From Escherichia phage vB_EcoM_Goslar, in sequence record NC_048170.1: a DNA stretch of 64,000 bases. One strand, given 5' to 3'. Numbering within the stretch: the first letter of the stretch is position 1; every line of letters begins with the position of its first letter. The position numbers and the translations under genes were made by a program. A model generated the notes under the pieces. The model had not been told where the DNA came from, ran no database searches, and worked only from the letters and a program-made list of their open reading frames with translations. Positions 2,577 through 63,768 of the stretch are shown piece after piece.

Positions 2577-2678
2577 AATGTTGGATTAAGTTAAATACCG
2601 CAACCGCAGCTAATTTTATAGGCTTTTAGCCTAAACCAATCATCTTCGGAATCATCATCTTTGAAACAGGAATCTATC

Positions 2679-3500
2679 ATGGAAAAAGTATTTGTTTGTA
2701 AGTTGTTTACCAACGGCAATAGCCAACCAATGTATCTGACCGATCCAGTTCTGGGTAATCGGAACAGTACCGTATTCAAAGAAGCTTTCGAATACGCTAA
2801 AAATAAAGCCGTGAGAACGCTGACGTCTGATGACTGTATCAACGGTATCACGTGGGCAGAGTTATTCGGTGATGCTGTTAGACACTTCGTTCAGAACGCA
2901 AGAAAACAGGAAATCAGTCTCACGACTATCGTTGTGCGCGAAAACGCAGAAATTTTATCAAACGTTTTAGTTGATTTTAATGACGTTTGCGTGTTTAATC
3001 CAGAGAACACGTTTGAACAATATCTTACTGCCCTGAACAACCAGCTCGGTAAAGATATTCATCCCGAATTCGCCAAGTTAACATATCAGTTACTTTTTGA
3101 TGACATCGATCCAAATACGAAGATCAATACCAGCTCGTCACACCTGGTAAAGAAATACGGATCGGTTCTTGCTACGGCAACACCCACCACCGATGGCGGT
3201 TATGATATCGAATTGGATGGTCCATTAAAAGAACAAGAGCCTACTGGGGTTAGGGCGGTACATCACAACCTCGTCGTTAAATCTGATGGATGCGATGAAC
3301 ATTACGCTATGATAAACGATGAAAACAATTACCGTTTAAGTCAAGCGATTGGTGTTCTACGCTATACCGAACCCACTGTTGTAGACGATTATACATCGAC
3401 AACAACGCACACCACGTGTTTCATTTTCATTTATCCCAATGAAAGTGTGTACATTACTGACTGCTACGGCAACACTGTAGATAGCCTACGTCGTTACTAA
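2679..3500 (+). CDS. hypothetical protein
   Basis: Track ORF begins at TTG 2661; first ATG at 2679 has AGGA 9 nt upstream; followed by a hairpin plus T-tract terminator. Confidence 0.5.
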   Translation: MEKVFVCKLFTNGNSQPMYLTDPVLGNRNSTVFKEAFEYAKNKAVRTLTSDDCINGITWAELFGDAVRHFVQNARKQEISLTTIVVRENAEILSNVLVDFNDVCVFNPENTFEQYLTALNNQLGKDIHPEFAKLTYQLLFDDIDPNTKINTSSSHLVKKYGSVLATATPTTDGGYDIELDGPLKEQEPTGVRAVHHNLVVKSDGCDEHYAMINDENNYRLSQAIGVLRYTEPTVVDDYTSTTTHTTCFIFIYPNESVYITDCYGNTVDSLRRY

Positions 3501-3506
3501 TCGTCG

Positions 3507-3533
3507 AGCCTGTCCTTCGGGGCAGGCTTTTTA
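3507..3533 (+). terminator. rho-independent terminator (GC hairpin with TTCG loop, then TTTTT)
   Basis: agcctgtcc-ttcg-gggcaggct followed by tttttat immediately after the stop of the 2679..3500 gene. Confidence 0.6.
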
Positions 3534-3603
3534 TGCTGTTAAATATCCGGAATAAGAATTAACAAAATAGGAAAATGGTGTGAATATAACACAAAGGAGG
3601 GAG

Positions 3604-3726
3604 ATGATTATGTTACTCATTCTAATGGAGAGAGCATTGCTGGCGGGTATCTGCGCATTCTCTGTTAAACACGCTGTTGCTATCATGGCTGAAGAAAGGC
3701 GTAATACGCATAATGTATTACGCTGA
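3604..3726 (+). CDS. possible small hydrophobic peptide (40 aa), not in the ORF track
   Basis: ATG at 3604 preceded by AAGGAGG with 4-nt spacing; translation MIMLLILMERALLAGICAFSVKHAVAIMAEERRNTHNVLR; below the track's length cut-off. Confidence 0.3.
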   Translation: MIMLLILMERALLAGICAFSVKHAVAIMAEERRNTHNVLR

Positions 3727-3835
3727 AAACACTGTGTGCATTAGTGTATGACGAGAAATCGTCGAGGCCCCCGTCTTCACGAGGGCCAACACCTATGCAT
3801 GATTATCCATCGTCTGTTAAACAAAGGTTATAAAC

Positions 3836-4144
3836 ATGAGCAATTTGAACGTTGAGTTTACTTCAACAACGCCTGTCATGAATGGTGTTGGCACTGAAAC
3901 CAAAATCGTATTAGAACCCATTCCAGGGTTACGTGATCTCGGTGATTTTTATCAACTGATGCCGCGTATACGGAAGGCCTTAAACAGTATCGATCTTGAT
4001 TCTAATAAAGATTTCCAACACGATACAGAAAATACCGATCATGTGTTGCTGCCATCGGGGATCGCAAAATTCACCTACACGCAAACATTGAAAGCCTCCG
4101 ATGGTGAAATCCGTCGTTTTATCGTTGAAGTAGAAAGCGCATAA
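3836..4144 (+). CDS. hypothetical protein
   Basis: 102-aa ORF, ATG at 3836; ends at the conserved hairpin 4149-4180. Confidence 0.45.
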   Translation: MSNLNVEFTSTTPVMNGVGTETKIVLEPIPGLRDLGDFYQLMPRIRKALNSIDLDSNKDFQHDTENTDHVLLPSGIAKFTYTQTLKASDGEIRRFIVEVESA

Positions 4145-4148
4145 AAAC

Positions 4149-4180
4149 CATCCTCCCAACCCGTAAGGGAAGGGAGGATG
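4149..4180 (-). terminator. conserved intergenic stem-loop terminator
   Basis: catcctccc-aa-ccc-gtaa-ggg-aa-gggaggatg between convergent genes; minus-sense followed by UGGUUUUUAUGC. Confidence 0.55.
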
Positions 4181-4197
4181 AAATATGCCGTTAAACG

Positions 4198-4827
4198 TTA
4201 TTCAACAAACCCTGCGTTCAACAGATTGTCGTAAACACGATTAGCGACATCAACAGGAGAATGTGTGTTACTGGTGTCTATACACAACGTTTTCGCGTCG
4301 CCGAGATAGTCCATAAAATCCATGTAACGATAACGTCGTTTATTGAATGTCGCTTCATCGATGTTATCAAACATCTGATGTTTAGCGTGACGAACACGGA
4401 ACCGTCTTAAATACGTAGGATAGTCGATATCCAGATAAACATAGTAAGACGGCATGATAATCGACGGTAGGTTCGGCAACAATGCGTCAAACAACTTAAC
4501 GTTGGCATCATTAACCTGATAAACATACGTCGAAGCAATCGAACGATCGCTAAGCACAGTCTTCCCTTCGTTAAGGGCTGGATGAATCACCTTGTTGAAG
4601 AGATGATTGCGTTGCGACATCATCGCCAATAGCTCAGTTTCTGGATCGAATCTGTTCGTTGGCGTCTGATCTTCCAGGATAAGTTTACGAATGGCTTCTC
4701 CGTAGAGCGTACCACCAGGTTCGCGTACGACACAGACATTGTTTAAACGACTATGTAAAGACGAGATAACCGAACTCTTTCCTGAATAATCCAGGCCTTC
4801 AATAACGATATATTTATTACGAGACAT
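4198..4827 (-). CDS. tmk: thymidylate (dNMP) kinase-like protein
   Basis: P-loop IVIEGLDYSGKSS near the N-terminus, size about 210 aa; track start is TTG, first ATG at 4825-4827 has GGAG 9 nt upstream. Confidence 0.7.
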   Translation of the reverse strand: MSRNKYIVIEGLDYSGKSSVISSLHSRLNNVCVVREPGGTLYGEAIRKLILEDQTPTNRFDPETELLAMMSQRNHLFNKVIHPALNEGKTVLSDRSIASTYVYQVNDANVKLFDALLPNLPSIIMPSYYVYLDIDYPTYLRRFRVRHAKHQMFDNIDEATFNKRRYRYMDFMDYLGDAKTLCIDTSNTHSPVDVANRVYDNLLNAGFVE

Positions 4828-4843: not shown

Positions 4844-6019
4844 CTACTTCGTTTTCGCCATTATCGGCTGCGATACTGTAATCTCGACCCGATCGACATC
4901 GGTACGTTTAACGATGATAAGGCTGCGTTCATCACCGAATGGTTCTGAGATCTTACAAGCCTCTTTAAGATTTTCGAGAATCTTGCCATGGGGTTCAAAC
5001 ACCGCAAAACCGGAACTAGCGTCGATTCTTATTAGACTTACACGCGTGCCGTTTACGGTAATAACATCTTCCGTCTTGAATTCACAACAGGAGGGTAGAC
5101 GGAACTGGCCGGGAATACCGGCTACGTATGCCTCACCACCGAACATTTCTATTAACGTCACTGGTTTGAATGTTTTCTCTGGGAAAGCATTATTAAGGAT
5201 ATCGTTTCCATTCACAAACCAGATCGTTACTTTATCTTCGGAATACGCTAGTCGGTACGGTTGGGTTGCGGACGCTTGCGCTTTATGTTGGTTAAACAAC
5301 TTTGATTTTGTCGCAATCACAGCACGACCTTGGGCGTCAAAGTACAGAACTTCATACCCAACACATCCGATAAACACGCGACGGTTATTAAGTTCCGGAA
5401 TTCTGACTACTAACGCATTACCGTCTTCCGTCGGTGTAATGCCGCGTAGGACGATCGATTCGTTATTCAATACTGAGTTGTCCACAACGATGCTTCGCAT
5501 TACCGCTGGGGTTACTGTTTTATCTGCGGTAGGTTCAGGTTGCTCAGCAATGCGGTCAAAAGGTTCGATGGATACCATGGGAACGAAGTATTCAACTATA
5601 TGCTTGTTTGCAGCACCAACGTCCATGACGGTGATCTGCAAACGCGTAGCATCCGAATTCAATGCTTGTTTCACACGTTCTGCATTAGGAGTATCACGGT
5701 CAATACGAATCAAGGCTTTTACCACACCGTCGTCTTCCAACCATCCCGTTAAAACGCGACCGACGATATCGTTCACGTCACGAATCGGGAAGCACAGTTC
5801 AGCGCCATCGAGCACCGCTTCGATTTTACTGCTAATGACGGGCACCTTACCATCGTTAAGATGCGCCAGCAGACCGGTTAATGCACCTTCACTAACCGGA
5901 TGTTTTGTCGTCGTACTGACCAACGGTACGATAAAACGATCTTCGCTGTATTTCTCTGCACCACAGATAACCGGGACTTGAGGGCATCGATCAACCAGAC
6001 CCCATTCAACGGTATTCAT
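4844..6019 (-). CDS. hypothetical protein
   Basis: Long ORF 4844..6097 (TTG start); internal ATG at 6017-6019 has the strong SD AAGAAGGA and avoids overlap with the upstream RuvC-like gene; 5' end uncertain. Confidence 0.45.
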   Translation of the reverse strand: MNTVEWGLVDRCPQVPVICGAEKYSEDRFIVPLVSTTTKHPVSEGALTGLLAHLNDGKVPVISSKIEAVLDGAELCFPIRDVNDIVGRVLTGWLEDDGVVKALIRIDRDTPNAERVKQALNSDATRLQITVMDVGAANKHIVEYFVPMVSIEPFDRIAEQPEPTADKTVTPAVMRSIVVDNSVLNNESIVLRGITPTEDGNALVVRIPELNNRRVFIGCVGYEVLYFDAQGRAVIATKSKLFNQHKAQASATQPYRLAYSEDKVTIWFVNGNDILNNAFPEKTFKPVTLIEMFGGEAYVAGIPGQFRLPSCCEFKTEDVITVNGTRVSLIRIDASSGFAVFEPHGKILENLKEACKISEPFGDERSLIIVKRTDVDRVEITVSQPIMAKTK

Positions 6020-6053
6020 AACGTTTTTTCCTTCTTGGGTTTTGTACATGTTG

Positions 6054-6668
6054 CTAACGGCGTTTTGTACCGACCTTCCCATTTCGATGGTCATCAAGAA
6101 TACGCCATTCTTCGAACAGGAGTTCGGCTGCGAAATAACCTACAGCGATGCTGTCTATCGCATGCTCATCAAGATTCGCTAACACAACACCGTTTCTGGG
6201 TGTGATGTTCATGAGGTTCAACACTTTCTGGCGAACATCGTCCTTACCAACACGGGACGTCATGATCCCAACAGCACGTTTCGCGCTTCGGTTATCAACC
6301 CCTAAGAAAGACACCGTAGGATCAAAATCGATAACCGTTGTCTGAATCGCTGAAAACAGCTCGCTGAGCGCCATCCCGCTTTGCTTGAAACGACCGATGA
6401 ACGGTGTCTCACAAGCAACCGCTTGCGGCTGGTACTCTTGCAATAACGTTGTCAGCGAACGACGGTGTTCTTGGATACGTGCGGCACGATTACCGTATCC
6501 AAGCGCAATATCGCCATCAGGATCATATCGACGTGAAGCGTGCCATGTCCCCGCATACAGCAGTTCAATATCTTCGACACGCACGTCCAAACGTAGTAAC
6601 GACGCACCGAGTGTATCGGTGCCAGGGTCGATTGCCAGAATATCGTAAGCGTATTCTGGTGGGATCAT
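6054..6668 (-). CDS. ruvC: RuvC-like Holliday junction resolvase
   Basis: N-terminal ILAIDPGTDTLG (RuvC IDPG acidic motif), ACETPF, C-terminal DEHAIDSIAVG; ATG at 6666-6668 overlaps the upstream stop as ATGA. Confidence 0.6.
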   Translation of the reverse strand: MIPPEYAYDILAIDPGTDTLGASLLRLDVRVEDIELLYAGTWHASRRYDPDGDIALGYGNRAARIQEHRRSLTTLLQEYQPQAVACETPFIGRFKQSGMALSELFSAIQTTVIDFDPTVSFLGVDNRSAKRAVGIMTSRVGKDDVRQKVLNLMNITPRNGVVLANLDEHAIDSIAVGYFAAELLFEEWRILDDHRNGKVGTKRR

Positions 6669-11185: not shown

Positions 11186-11220
11186 CCTCCTTCCCTAGCC
11201 GTCAAGGCCGGGGAAGGAGG
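11186..11220. terminator. conserved intergenic stem-loop (variant loop), between convergent genes
   Basis: cctccttccc-tagccgtcaaggccg-gggaaggagg; 10-bp outer stem, U-rich flanks on both strands. Confidence 0.5.
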
Positions 11221-11235
11221 ATTATAGTTTATTTA

Positions 11236-14971: not shown

Positions 14972-15052
14972 TTAAAAAGTTCCTCTGTTTCACGTTAATT
15001 AAACAACGTATTGATTTCTATTTGACAGAATACGAACAGTGTACGTATCTAT

Positions 15053-15076
15053 CATGAAGGTAATGTAGTCGTGAAA
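15053..15076 (-). promoter_or_regulatory. conserved promoter-like motif, copy A
   Basis: Minus-sense TTCACGACTACATTACCTTCATGA; one of four near-identical copies, about 80 nt upstream of the 14971 start. Confidence 0.45.
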
Positions 15077-15638
15077 GGATTTGTGTTACAGAAAGGGTTT
15101 TGTTTGTTTTAAGAAGGGATGGATTTAGAAGAGGTGTTTCAAGGAAGGTAAACGAGGATAGGTATTTTGATTTAAGTAAGCAAGTAAGATGTTATCTGTA
15201 TTTGTTAAAAGTGTATTGTCTATGTTATCTTGTTTATCTTAGGTTATGTCTTATTGTTCAATCGTTTTATCTTGGTATGTTTACGTTGTTTTTATTTATC
15301 TTAAATTAATTTAAAAGTAGATCAATAAGCTTATCTTCAAAACAATGGATAACATGTGTTTACTACCTTAACGGTAACACATGTCATCTGTGCATTACAC
15401 TACGTTACATGCTAGTTAAATCGGATAACTCAAAAAACCATTTGTGATACTCTTCTTCACGTTGTTCATCAGAGTATCTCGTCTATACTCATTGCATTCG
15501 TATACGACATAACCGTTATACGCTAACGCTACGCTTATAGCTTGATAACTCTAAGGATAAAAACATAAACTCGCTTCGCTCGTTTAGTTTTTCTTTTTCT
15601 TAGAGTTATCCTGTTGCTCGTCTCTAAAGGACTTCGCT

Positions 15639-15666
15639 CCTCCCCCGTCCCCCGAAGGGGCCGAGG
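15639..15666 (-). terminator. degenerate member of the stem-loop family (CCCC-CGAA-GGGG core)
   Basis: cctcccccgtcccccgaaggggccgagg inside the non-coding island. Confidence 0.3.
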
Positions 15667-15777
15667 TCGTGGAAATTTTACTTTCCAAATACATTTACAA
15701 CATCTGTAAACTTTTACTCCAGGTACTTAATCTTATCGTTAGAAATTATAAAAGAGAAGAATAAACACAAACATAAA

Positions 15778-15810
15778 CCTTCCTCCAACCCAACAGGGAA
15801 GGAGGAAGGG
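15778..15810 (-). terminator. conserved intergenic stem-loop terminator
   Basis: ccttcctcc-aa-ccc-aaca-ggg-aa-ggaggaagg directly after the stop of 15826..16719; minus-sense hairpin followed by UUUAUGUUUG. Confidence 0.6.
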
Positions 15811-15825
15811 AGAGCTTGATTTTAA

Positions 15826-27735: not shown

Positions 27736-27745
27736 CCAAACATAA

Positions 27746-27777
27746 CCCTCCTCCAACCCGTAAGGGAAGGAGGAGGG
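27746..27777 (-). terminator. conserved intergenic stem-loop terminator
   Basis: ccctcctcc-aa-ccc-gtaa-ggg-aa-ggaggaggg; minus-sense hairpin followed by UUAUGUUUGG; sits between convergent genes. Confidence 0.6.
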
Positions 27778-36845: not shown

Positions 36846-36880
36846 CCTTCTCCCCAACCCGATGAGGGAAGGGGAGAAGG
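36846..36880 (-). terminator. conserved intergenic stem-loop terminator (variant loop GATGA)
   Basis: ccttctcccc-aa-ccc-gatga-ggg-aa-ggggagaagg between convergent genes; stem changes are compensatory. Confidence 0.55.
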
Positions 36881-36897
36881 GCTATGCGCTATTTAAT

Positions 36898-43250: not shown

Positions 43251-43274
43251 TCACCTAGGTAATGTAAGCGTCAA
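43251..43274 (-). promoter_or_regulatory. conserved promoter-like motif, copy C
   Basis: Minus-sense TTGACGCTTACATTACCTAGGTGA, about 35 nt downstream (minus sense) of hairpin 43310-43339 and ~150 nt upstream of the 43100 start. Confidence 0.45.
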
Positions 43275-43309
43275 ATTTTTTCTATTCGCAACGATAAACG
43301 GCATAGAAA

Positions 43310-43339
43310 CCTCCCCCAACCCTTACGGGCTGAGGGAGG
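43310..43339 (-). terminator. conserved intergenic stem-loop terminator (variant)
   Basis: cctccc-ccaa-ccc-ttac-ggg-ctga-gggagg; minus-sense followed by UUUCUAUGCCG; downstream of the candidate capsid gene. Confidence 0.5.
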
Positions 43340-43438
43340 CTGACTTATGTATCACGGTGCCGGATGAATGTCCGGTGCAATGAAACCATCTGCAACGTTG
43401 TCATCAAGAATATCATCCAACGAAGCAGCTACGGTAGT

Positions 43439-48081: not shown

Positions 48082-48106
48082 ACGCAAAAAAAAAGATTGT
48101 GCGGTT

Positions 48107-48138
48107 CCCTCCTCCAACCCGTAAGGGAAGGAGGAGGG
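48107..48138 (-). terminator. conserved intergenic stem-loop terminator
   Basis: ccctcctcc-aa-ccc-gtaa-ggg-aa-ggaggaggg; on the minus strand followed within ~10 nt by a U9 tract; between convergent genes. Confidence 0.6.
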
Positions 48139-49716: not shown

Positions 49717-49740
49717 TCATCTAGGTAATGTAGTCGCGAA
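49717..49740 (-). promoter_or_regulatory. conserved promoter-like motif, copy B
   Basis: Minus-sense TTCGCGACTACATTACCTAGATGA, about 35 nt downstream (minus sense) of hairpin 49776-49807. Confidence 0.45.
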
Positions 49741-49775
49741 ATAAACTGGAGTAATGCGAAATAAGACAGCATAAG

Positions 49776-49807
49776 CCCTCTCCCAACCCGTAAGGGAAGG
49801 GAGAGGG
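49776..49807 (-). terminator. conserved intergenic stem-loop terminator
   Basis: ccctctccc-aa-ccc-gtaa-ggg-aa-gggagaggg; compensatory stem changes relative to other copies; followed by CUUAUGCUG. Confidence 0.6.
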
Positions 49808-49811
49808 AATA

Positions 49812-55079: not shown

Positions 55080-55101
55080 AGCCCACCCCGAAGGGCGGGC
55101 T
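55080..55101 (-). terminator. variant hairpin terminator with the same downstream UUAUG
   Basis: agccc-acccc-gaag-ggcgggct, minus-sense followed by UUUAUGCUG; directly after the stop of the 1125-aa gene. Confidence 0.5.
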
Positions 55102-60901: not shown

Positions 60902-61008
60902 TTGGGACTCCTACGTAGGAAAATCTTGGCGGGTGATCATGTCCGCCATTTACCTTCTGAACCGTTGATTCAGAAGTCAAAAGATAACCGGATACCAACG
61001 CCATAAAA

Positions 61009-61041
61009 CCTTCCTCCAACCCGTAAGGGAAGGAGGAAGGG
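61009..61041 (-). terminator. conserved intergenic stem-loop terminator
   Basis: ccttcctcc-aa-ccc-gtaa-ggg-aa-ggaggaagg; minus-sense followed by UUUUAUGGCG. Confidence 0.6.
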
Positions 61042-61050
61042 ATATAGTGG

Positions 61051-63714: not shown

Positions 63715-63746
63715 CCCTCTCCCAACCCGTGAGGGAAGGGAGAGGG
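63715..63746 (-). terminator. conserved intergenic stem-loop terminator (GTGA loop)
   Basis: ccctctccc-aa-ccc-gtga-ggg-aa-gggagaggg; minus-sense followed by UUCUAUGCCG. Confidence 0.6.
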
Positions 63747-63768
63747 AATATGTCAGTTTATTAACTGA

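Follow-up and report, generated by a model that had tools for sequence, protein, structure and literature searches.

The small open reading frame between gp5 and gp7 of Goslar, a nucleus-forming phiKZ-like jumbo phage of E. coli, is quite probably a genuine gene, gp6, that starts at ATG 3610, encodes a 38-residue peptide predicted to form one helix and is followed by a conserved structured non-coding element. The coding sequence (3610 to 3726, plus strand) lies near the start of the window, that is, the whole 64-kb stretch of DNA analysed here, and ends in a TGA stop codon at 3724-3726. An exact-protein look-up matched its 38-aa product (MLLILMERALLAGICAFSVKHAVAIMAEERRNTHNVLR) at 100% identity to QBO63799.1 / YP_009820691.1, "hypothetical protein Goslar_00006", and also to UniRef100_A0A482GK72; the same product has been called on 433 public contigs. 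The ORF is the sixth gene counted from the start of the window, in agreement with the locus tag, and the adjoining 102-aa protein is likewise identical to a Goslar protein. The peptide had been described as unannotated in the original prediction, which is wrong for the public record, as the 38-aa product was already deposited as YP_009820691.1. Since gp6 is already in public records as a hypothetical protein, it is an ordinary small phage gene. The public record gives it no function, and the Goslar literature that we searched does not mention it.

Start codon and evidence for coding

The AAGGAGG box at 3594-3600 (plus strand) is the longest correctly spaced Shine-Dalgarno sequence in the window, in which real genes have Shine-Dalgarno matches of 4-6 nt and spacers of 6-10 nt. 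It precedes ATG 3610 by 9 nt and ATG 3604 by only 3 nt. The original prediction had placed the start at ATG 3604 behind a near-perfect ribosome-binding site; the box, the ATG and the 40-aa translation were all exact, but the 3-nt spacer points to ATG 3610 as the likely start. The 40-aa version adds two in-frame codons, ATG ATT (3604 to 3609), the second of which varies freely among relatives as I, T or N. RefSeq and most gene callers choose the 38-aa form, although some JGI/IMG calls take the 40-aa form. Because of the 9-nt rather than 3-nt spacer, the variable second codon and the usage of RefSeq and the gene callers, we take 3610-3726 as the likely coding sequence, and the codons at 3604-3609 are probably 5′ UTR and not coding. 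Host ribosomes would then initiate at ATG 3610 by way of the AAGGAGG 9 nt upstream. Across 19 related sequences the GGAG/GAGG core of the box is always kept and the start codon is ATG throughout, except for GTG in one. Chance is excluded as the source of this arrangement: a 6-nt Shine-Dalgarno match, a spacing of 4-10 nt, an ATG and an ORF of at least 38 codons occurred together in 37 of 20,000 dinucleotide-preserving shuffles of the region 3501-3835 (0.19%, a chance of about 0.002). The same configuration (Shine-Dalgarno match, ATG and at least 38 codons) is found five times elsewhere in the window, every time in the frame of a real gene.

The pattern of substitution also argues for coding. 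Eleven relatives were collected without reference to the peptide, by way of neighbouring genes or a DNA pattern outside the ORF, and in these the gp6 frame has 14 synonymous and 5 non-synonymous changes, where neutrality predicts 33% synonymous (P = 0.0004; omega ~0.18). By codon position the changes number 4, 2 and 13, so that 13 of the 19 fall at third positions; two first-position changes in leucine codons (CTA to TTA and CTG to TTG) are synonymous as well, a feature of this frame alone. The five replacements, H to R, A to T (twice), M to I and R to K, are without exception conservative. When the same test was applied to the other five frames, four failed, and the antisense frame that shares third positions with gp6 gave a weaker result than the sense frame (12 synonymous to 7 non-synonymous, P = 0.003). 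All 19 related sequences retain an uninterrupted ORF. Its codon usage scores +0.114 per codon, the best of the six frames and within the range of real genes; set against real 39-codon windows the score stands at the 8th percentile, and against spurious ORFs at the 94.5th, which gives a likelihood ratio of about 2.3. RNA folding over the body of the ORF (3610-3697) is unremarkable (z = +0.88), as expected for ordinary coding sequence. Therefore, from 14 synonymous changes against 5 conservative replacements, comparison of the relatives indicates that gp6 is a protein-coding gene under purifying selection. The synonymous excess, the geometry of the start, the codon usage and the intact frame in every relative together support the proposal of a genuine translated small gene.

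The selection test is limited to 19 substitutions because the relatives form one shallow clade of 92-96% nucleotide identity. Distant relatives were sought with the peptide, with gp7 and with DNA patterns in viral, metagenome and genome collections, and only this same clade was recovered. BLASTN of the locus against a phage collection returned no match, that copy apparently not containing Goslar, and one candidate relative (L024) was rejected as a chance 21-mer match in an Anaerolineales MAG. Earlier counts of 1 synonymous to 12 non-synonymous changes, and later of 14 to 16, had suggested relaxed or absent constraint. We rejected them as an artefact of ascertainment because distinct protein variants had served to retrieve loci L005-L012, and this inflated the non-synonymous class. 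Rare database variants of gp6 carry radical changes (L to P, C to R, R to C and R to G), and some of these may be real, which would indicate loose constraint. At third positions gp6 varies less (0.33) than its neighbours do (0.53-0.64), which places part of the conservation at the nucleotide level.

The gp6 peptide and the membrane

The original prediction described the peptide as having a hydrophobic N-terminal half and a basic C-terminus, and this is descriptively right (GRAVY 0.61, net charge +2). AlphaFold2 predicts a single alpha-helix over residues 2-37 with a mean pLDDT of 84. As modelled, the 38-residue product would fold into one continuous helix, the N-terminal two-thirds of which would be hydrophobic, with a polar and basic C-terminal tail (EERRNTHNVLR). 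The hydrophobic part is interrupted by E7/R8 and K20/H21, and two scales give opposite answers for a membrane-spanning helix: the best 19-residue window is unfavourable on the Hessa scale (+2.26 kcal/mol), whereas the Kyte-Doolittle mean of residues 1-19, calculated by hand, is favourable (~1.97). The hydrophobic moment is low (0.1-0.24), and the helix is not amphipathic.

A likeness to small membrane-active phage peptides had also been proposed, and this we could not uphold. The peptide has no clean transmembrane segment, no amphipathic moment, no homologue of known function and no lysis genes as neighbours; the genes around it encode proteins without assigned function, a thymidylate kinase, a RuvC-like protein and an SbcC-like protein. 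Neither PHROG nor Pfam gave a match, and a full HMMER scan of 1.84 billion representatives found no homologue outside the phage clade. Without a clean transmembrane domain, a lysis cassette among the neighbours or a PHROG or Pfam match, gp6 does not qualify as a holin or lysis peptide. Because the charged pairs break the hydrophobic stretch, a membrane-active role is unproven. We infer that gp6 acts either as a small helix that binds or regulates another protein or as a peptide that sits on a membrane, and membrane association as such seems to us possible but doubtful.

On its own the peptide matters little, being one of many annotated small hypothetical proteins in jumbo phage genomes. What is new here is the evidence for selection on gp6, the corrected start codon, and two tryptic peptides, ALLAGICAFSVK and HAVAIMAEER, that can serve as targets for mass spectrometry. 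A helical protein of 38 residues is also a cheap target for knock-down or localisation work.

Flanking terminators and the structured element downstream of gp6

The gene upstream of gp6, gp5 (2661-3500, plus strand), ends in a canonical intrinsic terminator at 3506 to 3541 on the same strand, in which a GC-rich stem of 10 bp, closed by a UUCG loop (3506-3529), is followed by TTTTTATGCTGT. A terminator scan picked up the same element as GAGCCTGTCC-TTCG-GGGCAGGCTT followed by TTTATGCTGT, and a G3506A variant converts a G-U pair of its stem to A-U. The conserved intrinsic terminator of phiKZ is a hairpin followed by YTTATKYYGT (Putzeys et al. 2024, PMC10914365). The gp5 terminator and many other sites in the window share this design, with a GC-rich hairpin followed by (T)TTATGC(C/T)GT, and a hairpin followed by TATGC(C/T)G recurs at no fewer than eight other intergenic sites of the window. 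The TATG at 3532-3535 was considered as a phiKZ-type late promoter for gp6 and rejected as part of the terminator motif, because the hairpin with TTATGCYGT flanks convergent terminators on both sides and matches the published motif (PMC10914365). A recurrent promoter-like motif, RGTAATRTAGYCGYGAAA, has 6 matches in the window against 0.46 expected; it is absent upstream of both gp6 and gp7, and no promoter was identified upstream of gp6. The gene, which shares its strand with gp5 and gp7 and follows the gp5 terminator, would be transcribed either by read-through of that terminator or from a promoter within 3542-3593.

Two structured elements follow on the 3′ side. Hairpin 1 (3698 to 3724, plus strand), seen in the folds, has an 11-bp stem (GGCGUAAUACG / UGUAUUACGCU) and a 5-nt loop, and spans the last 9 codons of gp6 together with the first base of the stop codon. 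All 8 third-codon positions in its stem are invariant, whereas 12 of 30 vary in the rest of the ORF, and the sole synonymous change within the hairpin, at 3711, falls in the loop. Both substitutions in the stem keep the pairing (G3698A, from G-U to A-U, and C3700T, from C-G to U-G). Beyond it lies a structured non-coding domain (3736 to 3800, assigned to neither strand) in which a closing stem, pairing 3736-3741 with 3795-3800 and 3744-3747 with 3789-3792, encloses hairpins P3 (3750-3763, GACGA-GAAA-UCGUC) and P4 (3766-3787, GGCCCCCGT-CTTC-ACGAGGGCC). P4 has 8 Watson-Crick pairs and one C-A mismatch. The original prediction had set the ORF between a terminator and a second hairpin, and both are confirmed, as the gp5 hairpin and as P4.

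The core of this domain is nearly invariant. Among the 11 sequences, one change was found in the 62 nt of 3737-3798, compared with 0.53-0.66 steps per site at neighbouring neutral sites; a wider set added one variant, C3771T (L011), which repairs the C-A mismatch of P4. Hairpin 1 and the junction domain together have folding z scores of -5.68 on the plus strand and -5.71 on the minus strand, and the 311-nt region folds with z = -3.3 on either strand. The intergenic region as a whole is more conserved than other intergenic regions. RNAalifold on 10 sequences detected no compensatory double changes, and one-sided compatible changes occurred at about the transition expectation; the covariation signal is absent because divergence is too low. 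A search of Rfam 15 over 3300-4300 gave three chance-level matches (E >= 3.8, far below gathering), none of them over 3690-3800, so that the domain has no family match at E <= 10. ARAGORN found no tRNA or tmRNA, and no meaningful repeat of any stretch of 3501-3840 turned up when the rest of the window was searched by k-mers. A predicted long-range pairing between the gp6 start region and 3800-3811 was set aside; we do not rely on it because the partner falls where the locus varies most (3801-3815, 0.66 steps per site).

The domain runs into a TATGC at 3794 to 3798 (plus strand), 6 nt past P4 and 39 nt before the start of gp7, which is invariant in all relatives, unlike positions 3799-3800. By analogy with phiKZ, this TATGC could serve as a late promoter or start site (TATG, with G as +1) or else form the tail of a weak terminator. 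Among the proteins of the phage is an RNA polymerase beta-like subunit of phiKZ type, and in phiKZ late promoters TATG alone is insufficient (PMC4666361). P4 differs from a phiKZ-type terminator in that it has no U-tract, is separated from TATGC by a 6-nt spacer (AACACC) and sits in a larger junction; it is at best a degenerate relative of that motif.

The next gene, gp7 (3836 to 4144, plus strand), encodes the 102-aa protein noted above, which has no assigned function and is uncharacterized in Goslar; its first 33 codons after the start have 24 synonymous changes and 1 non-synonymous change, a pattern strongly typical of coding sequence. In relatives, the gain or loss of 1 nt at 3822 opens or closes a spurious 116-aa extension of gp7 from ATG 3794. 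A bidirectional nested-hairpin terminator (4149 to 4180) separates the plus-strand island of gp5, gp6 and gp7 from the convergent tmk. It belongs to a recurrent CCTCC..CCC-GTAA-GGG..GGAGG family and has TATGC on both flanks.

The conserved folded element is more unusual than the peptide itself. The element is conserved far beyond neighbouring coding sequence and is thus a candidate cis-regulatory RNA. The gp6 mRNA would end in, or run on through, a stable conserved RNA comprising hairpin 1 and then the two-hairpin junction at 3736-3800. This structure may act at the RNA level, as an element for 3′-end formation, processing or attenuation, and thereby govern how much of the transcription or translation carries on into gp7.

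Alternative readings and implications

An unlikely alternative is that gp6 is a translated regulatory upstream ORF acting in cis on gp7 through 3698-3800, by leader-peptide-type attenuation or translational coupling. We hold out no better prospect for the step that it would need, in which ribosomes crossing hairpin 1 and stopping at its 3′ edge would remodel 3698-3800 and so alter the termination, processing or translation of gp7. The arrangement of the locus is suggestive: hairpin 1 ends exactly at the gp6 stop with a stem frozen even at synonymous sites, and the near-invariant domain fills the gap between gp6 and gp7 up to the invariant TATGC. Small RNAs derived from 5′ UTRs and premature-termination elements are documented in 201phi2-1 and phiKZ (PMC11512511). 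They resemble the element here in being conserved structured non-coding segments directly upstream of a protein gene in a phiKZ-like phage, and differ in that the present one also borders on a small ORF that is translated. Folding predictions sequester the start region of gp6 only when the transcript extends past 3800. However, that long-range pairing draws on 3801-3815, within the variable stretch already described, and shows no covariation. The gp6 sequence contains no regulatory codon runs, and selection along the whole peptide, with conservative replacements only, is something that a pure ribosome sensor does not need. Regulation of this kind is compatible with gp6 being a genuine gene and does not exclude it.

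More broadly, gp6 and the almost invariant, roughly 100 nt of 3698-3800 might constitute one regulatory module for which nucleus-forming phages offer no described counterpart so far, an idea to which we assign a low probability and which could take either of two forms. The structured RNA may control the small helical peptide, as a 3′-overlapping antisense RNA or as an attenuator of gp7 coupled to translation; or it may represent a new class of structured RNA in Goslar-like chimalliviruses, for example a signal for mRNA processing, stability or export.

It is quite improbable that 3535-3800 is instead a structured leader or small RNA and the ORF an untranslated by-product of gene callers. The unusual conservation of the intergenic region, the third positions that vary less than those of neighbouring genes, the folding of the 311-nt region on both strands, the very short peptide without homologues and the first-pass count of 1 to 12 would all fit such an RNA. 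However, that count was the ascertainment artefact described above, and RNA structure cannot yield the unbiased ratio of 14 to 5 with its third-position periodicity. The unremarkable folding of the ORF body, the low chance probability of the start geometry and the absence of an Rfam family match also weigh against it, and we retain gp6 as a coding gene.

Type I toxins and related small hydrophobic helical peptides (Hok, TisB, BsrG, Ldr/Ibs) are 19-55 aa long, and in BsrG/SR4 and TxpA/RatA the toxin mRNA is met by a 3′-overlapping antisense RNA. With its 38 residues, single predicted helix, hydrophobic body, charged terminus and stable 3′ mRNA structure, gp6 resembles such peptides; it could be imagined as a toxic helix held in check by a minus-strand antisense RNA from 3698-3800 overlapping the 3′ end of its mRNA. 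Folding is no weaker on the minus strand (-44.4 kcal/mol, z = -5.71) than on the plus strand, P4 becomes a perfect 9-bp stem there in place of the C-A mismatch, and the terminator scan marks minus-strand hairpin 1, with CUUUCUUC after it, as terminator-like. On the other hand, a minus-strand promoter would have to lie in 3800-3835, where the locus varies most, that strand has neither TATG nor the recurrent promoter motif, and the stem of hairpin 1 reaches 11 bp on the plus strand but 9 bp on the minus strand. Unlike type I toxins, gp6 has a hydrophobic segment interrupted by charges at E7/R8 and K20/H21 (Hessa about +2.3 kcal/mol), belongs to a lytic jumbo phage and has no sequence similarity to them. 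We know of no precedent for such a module in a strictly lytic jumbo phage and consider it very unlikely. That the real gene is an antisense 51-aa ORF (3686 to 3531, minus strand), which shares third positions with gp6 and shows a synonymous excess of 12 to 7 in the overlap, is effectively refuted, as this ORF has no Shine-Dalgarno sequence (its ATG is preceded by CCTTTCTTCAGCC), a negative codon-usage score and no codon periodicity outside the overlap (7:7:5 over 3534-3609), would turn the two synonymous leucine changes of gp6 into non-synonymous ones, and would run head-on into the gp5 terminator.

For the biology of this phage group, in which promoters, terminators and mRNA handling are poorly understood, the conserved non-coding element downstream of gp6 is the more useful lead.

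The gp6 reading frame and its start codon

The small open reading frame (ORF) gp6 lies on the plus strand between two genes of the same orientation, gp5 (2661-3500) and gp7 (3836-4144, 102 aa). The intrinsic terminator of gp5, a 10-bp hairpin with a UUCG loop (3506-3529) followed by TTTTTATGCTGT, precedes a Shine-Dalgarno (SD) box, AAGGAGG, at 3594-3600, two ATG codons of one frame (at 3604 and at 3610) and the TGA stop codon of that frame at 3724-3726. Downstream of gp6 are a small hairpin with a GAAA loop (P3, 3750-3763) and the hairpin GGCCCCCGT-CTTC-ACGAGGGCC (P4, 3766-3787), and gp7 is followed by a bidirectional terminator facing a convergent thymidylate kinase gene. The original prediction described an unannotated 40-aa peptide with a near-perfect ribosome-binding site. 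Its 40-aa translation matches the sequence exactly, and the SD box and ATG 3604 are both present; however, the spacer to 3604 is only 3 nt, compared to 9 nt for ATG 3610. SD cores of 4-6 nt at a spacing of 6-10 nt are typical of real genes in the window, and with these the 9-nt spacer agrees and the 3-nt spacer does not. In addition, codon 2 of the 40-aa form varies freely among relatives (I to T or N), and the sole change seen at 3610 is ATG to GTG, still a start codon. On these sequence comparisons, and given that RefSeq and most gene callers use the 38-aa form, we favor ATG 3610, giving a 38-aa product, over ATG 3604. The 40-aa form appears in some JGI/IMG annotations.

The window contains 21 copies of the hexamer AGGAGG, mostly within stems of a recurrent terminator family, and the box on its own therefore carries little weight. 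When the 335-nt intergenic region was shuffled 20,000 times with its dinucleotides preserved, the full configuration (a 6-nt SD, 4-10 nt spacing, ATG and an ORF of 38 codons or more) appeared in only 37 shuffles, and all five further instances across the whole window lie in real gene frames.

Contrary to the original prediction, public records already list the ORF, as a hypothetical protein without assigned function. A DNA search of the phage BLAST collection gave no match. By exact-sequence look-up, the 38-aa product from ATG 3610 is identical to 'hypothetical protein Goslar_00006' of Escherichia phage vB_EcoM_Goslar (QBO63799.1 / YP_009820691.1) and is present on 433 contigs. Counted from the window start, the ORF is gene six, in agreement with that locus tag, and the adjoining 102-aa gp7 protein is likewise identical to a Goslar protein. 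A search of the accessible literature turned up no paper on gp6, which is an ordinary, previously annotated small phage gene.

The start of gp7 is affected by a 1-nt indel at 3822, which decides whether the upstream ATG at 3794 is in frame with the gene. Comparison of window positions 3794-3838 with the homologous positions in the related loci L001, L002, L011, L012 and L013 indicated that public gp7 calls switch between 102-aa and 116-aa versions because of this indel. Since the 116-aa extension is not conserved, 3836 is likely the true start. The gp7 protein (P0027 and its cluster members) is also deposited under Salmonella enterica assembly accessions, indicating that Goslar-like phage genomes occur in Salmonella isolate assemblies, through infection or carry-over.

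Selection on gp6 and properties of its product

We collected 18 related locus copies from IMG/VR, ENA, NCBI and Logan assemblies, which form a single shallow clade of 92-96% nucleotide identity. Initial counts of synonymous to non-synonymous changes (1:12, then 14:16) seemed to indicate no protein constraint, a reading rejected for biased sampling: eight loci had been fetched via distinct protein variants of the peptide, which inflated amino-acid changes. An unbiased set was therefore used, comprising the window and 10 loci found only via neighboring genes or via a DNA pattern of 21 nt located beyond the ORF. Here, 14 of the 19 substitutions in gp6 are synonymous and 5 non-synonymous, against a neutral expectation of 33% synonymous (P = 0.0004, omega ~0.18). 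Third codon positions take 13 of the 19, two additional substitutions are rare synonymous first-position Leu changes, and all five replacements are conservative (H to R, A to T twice, M to I, R to K). The ORF, a start codon and the GGAG core are intact in all relatives. Codon usage of gp6 is the best of the six frames and exceeds that of 94.5% of spurious ORFs, but reaches only the 8th percentile of real-gene windows. We conclude that the peptide is encoded and under selection. The constraint is looser than on its neighbors, for which the corresponding counts are 24:1 (gp7) and 10:1 (end of gp5).

The codon-periodic substitution pattern contradicts a purely non-coding reading of the region, which we regard as improbable. 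Four of the five alternative reading frames fail the synonymous-excess test, and the antisense frame that shares third positions with gp6 gives 12:7. An antisense gene at 3686..3531 (minus strand) is effectively refuted, as this ORF lacks an SD, has a negative codon-usage score and shows no codon periodicity outside the overlap (7:7:5).

The product (MLLILM-ER-ALLAGICAFSV-KH-AVAIMA-EERRNTHNVLR) is predicted by AlphaFold2 to form one continuous helix over residues 2-37 (mean pLDDT 84). It is hydrophobic overall (GRAVY 0.61), with two charged pairs breaking the stretch and a polar, net-positive tail. The Kyte-Doolittle mean of residues 1-19 (~1.97, by hand) is favorable to membrane insertion; the Hessa-scale sum of the best 19-residue window (+2.3 kcal/mol) is unfavorable, and the hydrophobic moment is low (0.1-0.24). 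No match was found in PHROG or Pfam, a full HMMER scan against 1.84 billion representative proteins yielded relatives from its own cluster only, and the neighboring genes are not lysis genes. The membrane-active character originally proposed is thus best kept as a tentative candidate role, membrane association being rather doubtful, and it is at least as likely that the peptide acts as a small helical regulator or binding partner. Likeness to small helical toxin-like peptides is limited to size and shape. A type-I-toxin-like module with an antisense RNA is very unlikely, since the minus strand has no conserved promoter region.

Elsewhere among relatives otherwise 94-96% identical, the 417-aa gene at 4844-6097 (minus strand) is hypervariable, especially at ~4950-5700; its variable sites number as many as 61 per 300 nt, vs. 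~20 elsewhere. The product has no PHROG match and varies in length between 393 and 417 aa, and the gene may represent a diversification hotspot, e.g. one related to host range or counter-defense.

Transcription signals around gp6

The hairpin with TTTATGCTGT immediately 5' of gp6 matches the conserved phiKZ intrinsic terminator motif, a hairpin plus YTTATKYYGT (PMC10914365), and the same architecture is found between genes at no fewer than eight further places in the window, among them both sides of convergent terminators. For these reasons we withdrew the TATG at 3532-3535 as a late promoter of gp6 of the phiKZ type (TATG, with G as +1; PMC4666361). In the ENA scaffold L009 (165,947 nt), no gene is called at the place of gp5 (2634-3000, homologous to window ~3100-3500); the 3' end of the gp5 region differs in sequence while the terminator and everything downstream are conserved, which suggests that gp5 has been replaced or has decayed there.

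Members of the recurrent, near-identical terminator family are nested hairpins of the form CCTCC..CCC-GTAA-GGG..GGAGG, or close to it, with (T)TATGC(C/T)G after the hairpin and in many cases on either side of it; they lie at approximately 4149-4180, 11190-11225, 15770-15810, 27740-27775, 36850-36885, 43300-43341, 48095-48135, 49775-49810, 55080-55101, 61000-61045 and 63715-63750. Among the products of the window are an RNA polymerase beta-like subunit of the phiKZ type, a major head protein that is phiKZ-like, and related virion proteins, ~25-35% identical to counterparts in Erwinia, Salmonella, Klebsiella and Pseudomonas jumbo phages; although protein identity to phiKZ-like phages is only at this level, the terminator family matches the published phiKZ motif.

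A promoter-like motif, RGTAATRTAGYCGYGAAA on the plus strand (TTTCRCGRCTAYATTACY in gene orientation), serves minus-strand genes at 2559-2576, 15059-15076, 43258-43275 and 49724-49741, with 6 matches vs. 0.46 expected (up to 3 mismatches). Its ATTACC core is similar to the phiKZ middle-promoter element AAanTTACc, and it probably represents one of the temporal promoter classes of Goslar. One copy lies in an AT-rich stretch of 854 nt (14972-15825) without an ORF in the gene set, which terminates in a hairpin of the terminator family and may hold small genes or non-coding RNAs.

Because the promoter-like motif is absent upstream of gp6 and gp7, we can only infer how gp6 is transcribed: read-through of the gp5 terminator or an unrecognized promoter in the fairly conserved 3542-3593 could account for it. 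An invariant TATGC at 3794-3798, 6 nt 3' of P4 and 39 nt 5' of the gp7 start, may serve gp7 as a late promoter or else be the tail of a weak terminator of gp6.

A conserved structured element at 3698-3800

The body of gp6 has gene-like substitution behavior; the last 27 nt of the ORF and the adjoining non-coding stretch behave very differently. Neutral benchmarks in the unbiased set, taken from gp5 and gp7 third positions and from the 3801-3835 spacer, gave 0.53-0.66 substitutions per site, compared to only 2 changes in hairpin 1 (3698-3724) and a single change among the 11 sequences in the 62-nt non-coding core (3737-3798). First and second codon positions in the neighboring genes are far less conserved than this core, which is nearly invariant in all relatives, and the edges between the element and its hypervariable flanks (0.55-0.66 steps per site) are sharp.

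Hairpin 1 has an 11-bp stem that ends on the first base of the gp6 stop codon. None of the 8 third-codon positions in this stem is variable, vs. 12 of 30 in the remaining ORF; the one synonymous change falls in the loop, and both stem substitutions preserve pairing (G-U to A-U, C-G to U-G). In the domain at 3736-3800, a closing stem surrounds P3 and P4 as a two-hairpin junction. Folding z-scores of the structured region are -5.68 (plus strand) and -5.71 (minus strand), against +0.88 for the ORF body. The plus strand gives the longer hairpin 1 and the minus strand the only perfect P4; the one P4 variant, C3771T in L011, mends a C-A mismatch of the stem. Divergence is too low for compensatory double substitutions, none of which occurs among the relatives, and no Rfam family matches the element.

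We consider it probable, with good confidence, that gp6 is translated into a helical protein of 38 residues on which purifying selection acts, and that an RNA structure under strong selection would bound or regulate its mRNA. An unlikely alternative, compatible with this reading, is that gp6 is a cis-regulatory upstream ORF, its translation being coupled to gp7 expression through the structure. What is new for gp6 is evidence of selection, a corrected start codon and a clearer context; the nearly invariant structured non-coding element beside it is the part that deserves follow-up.
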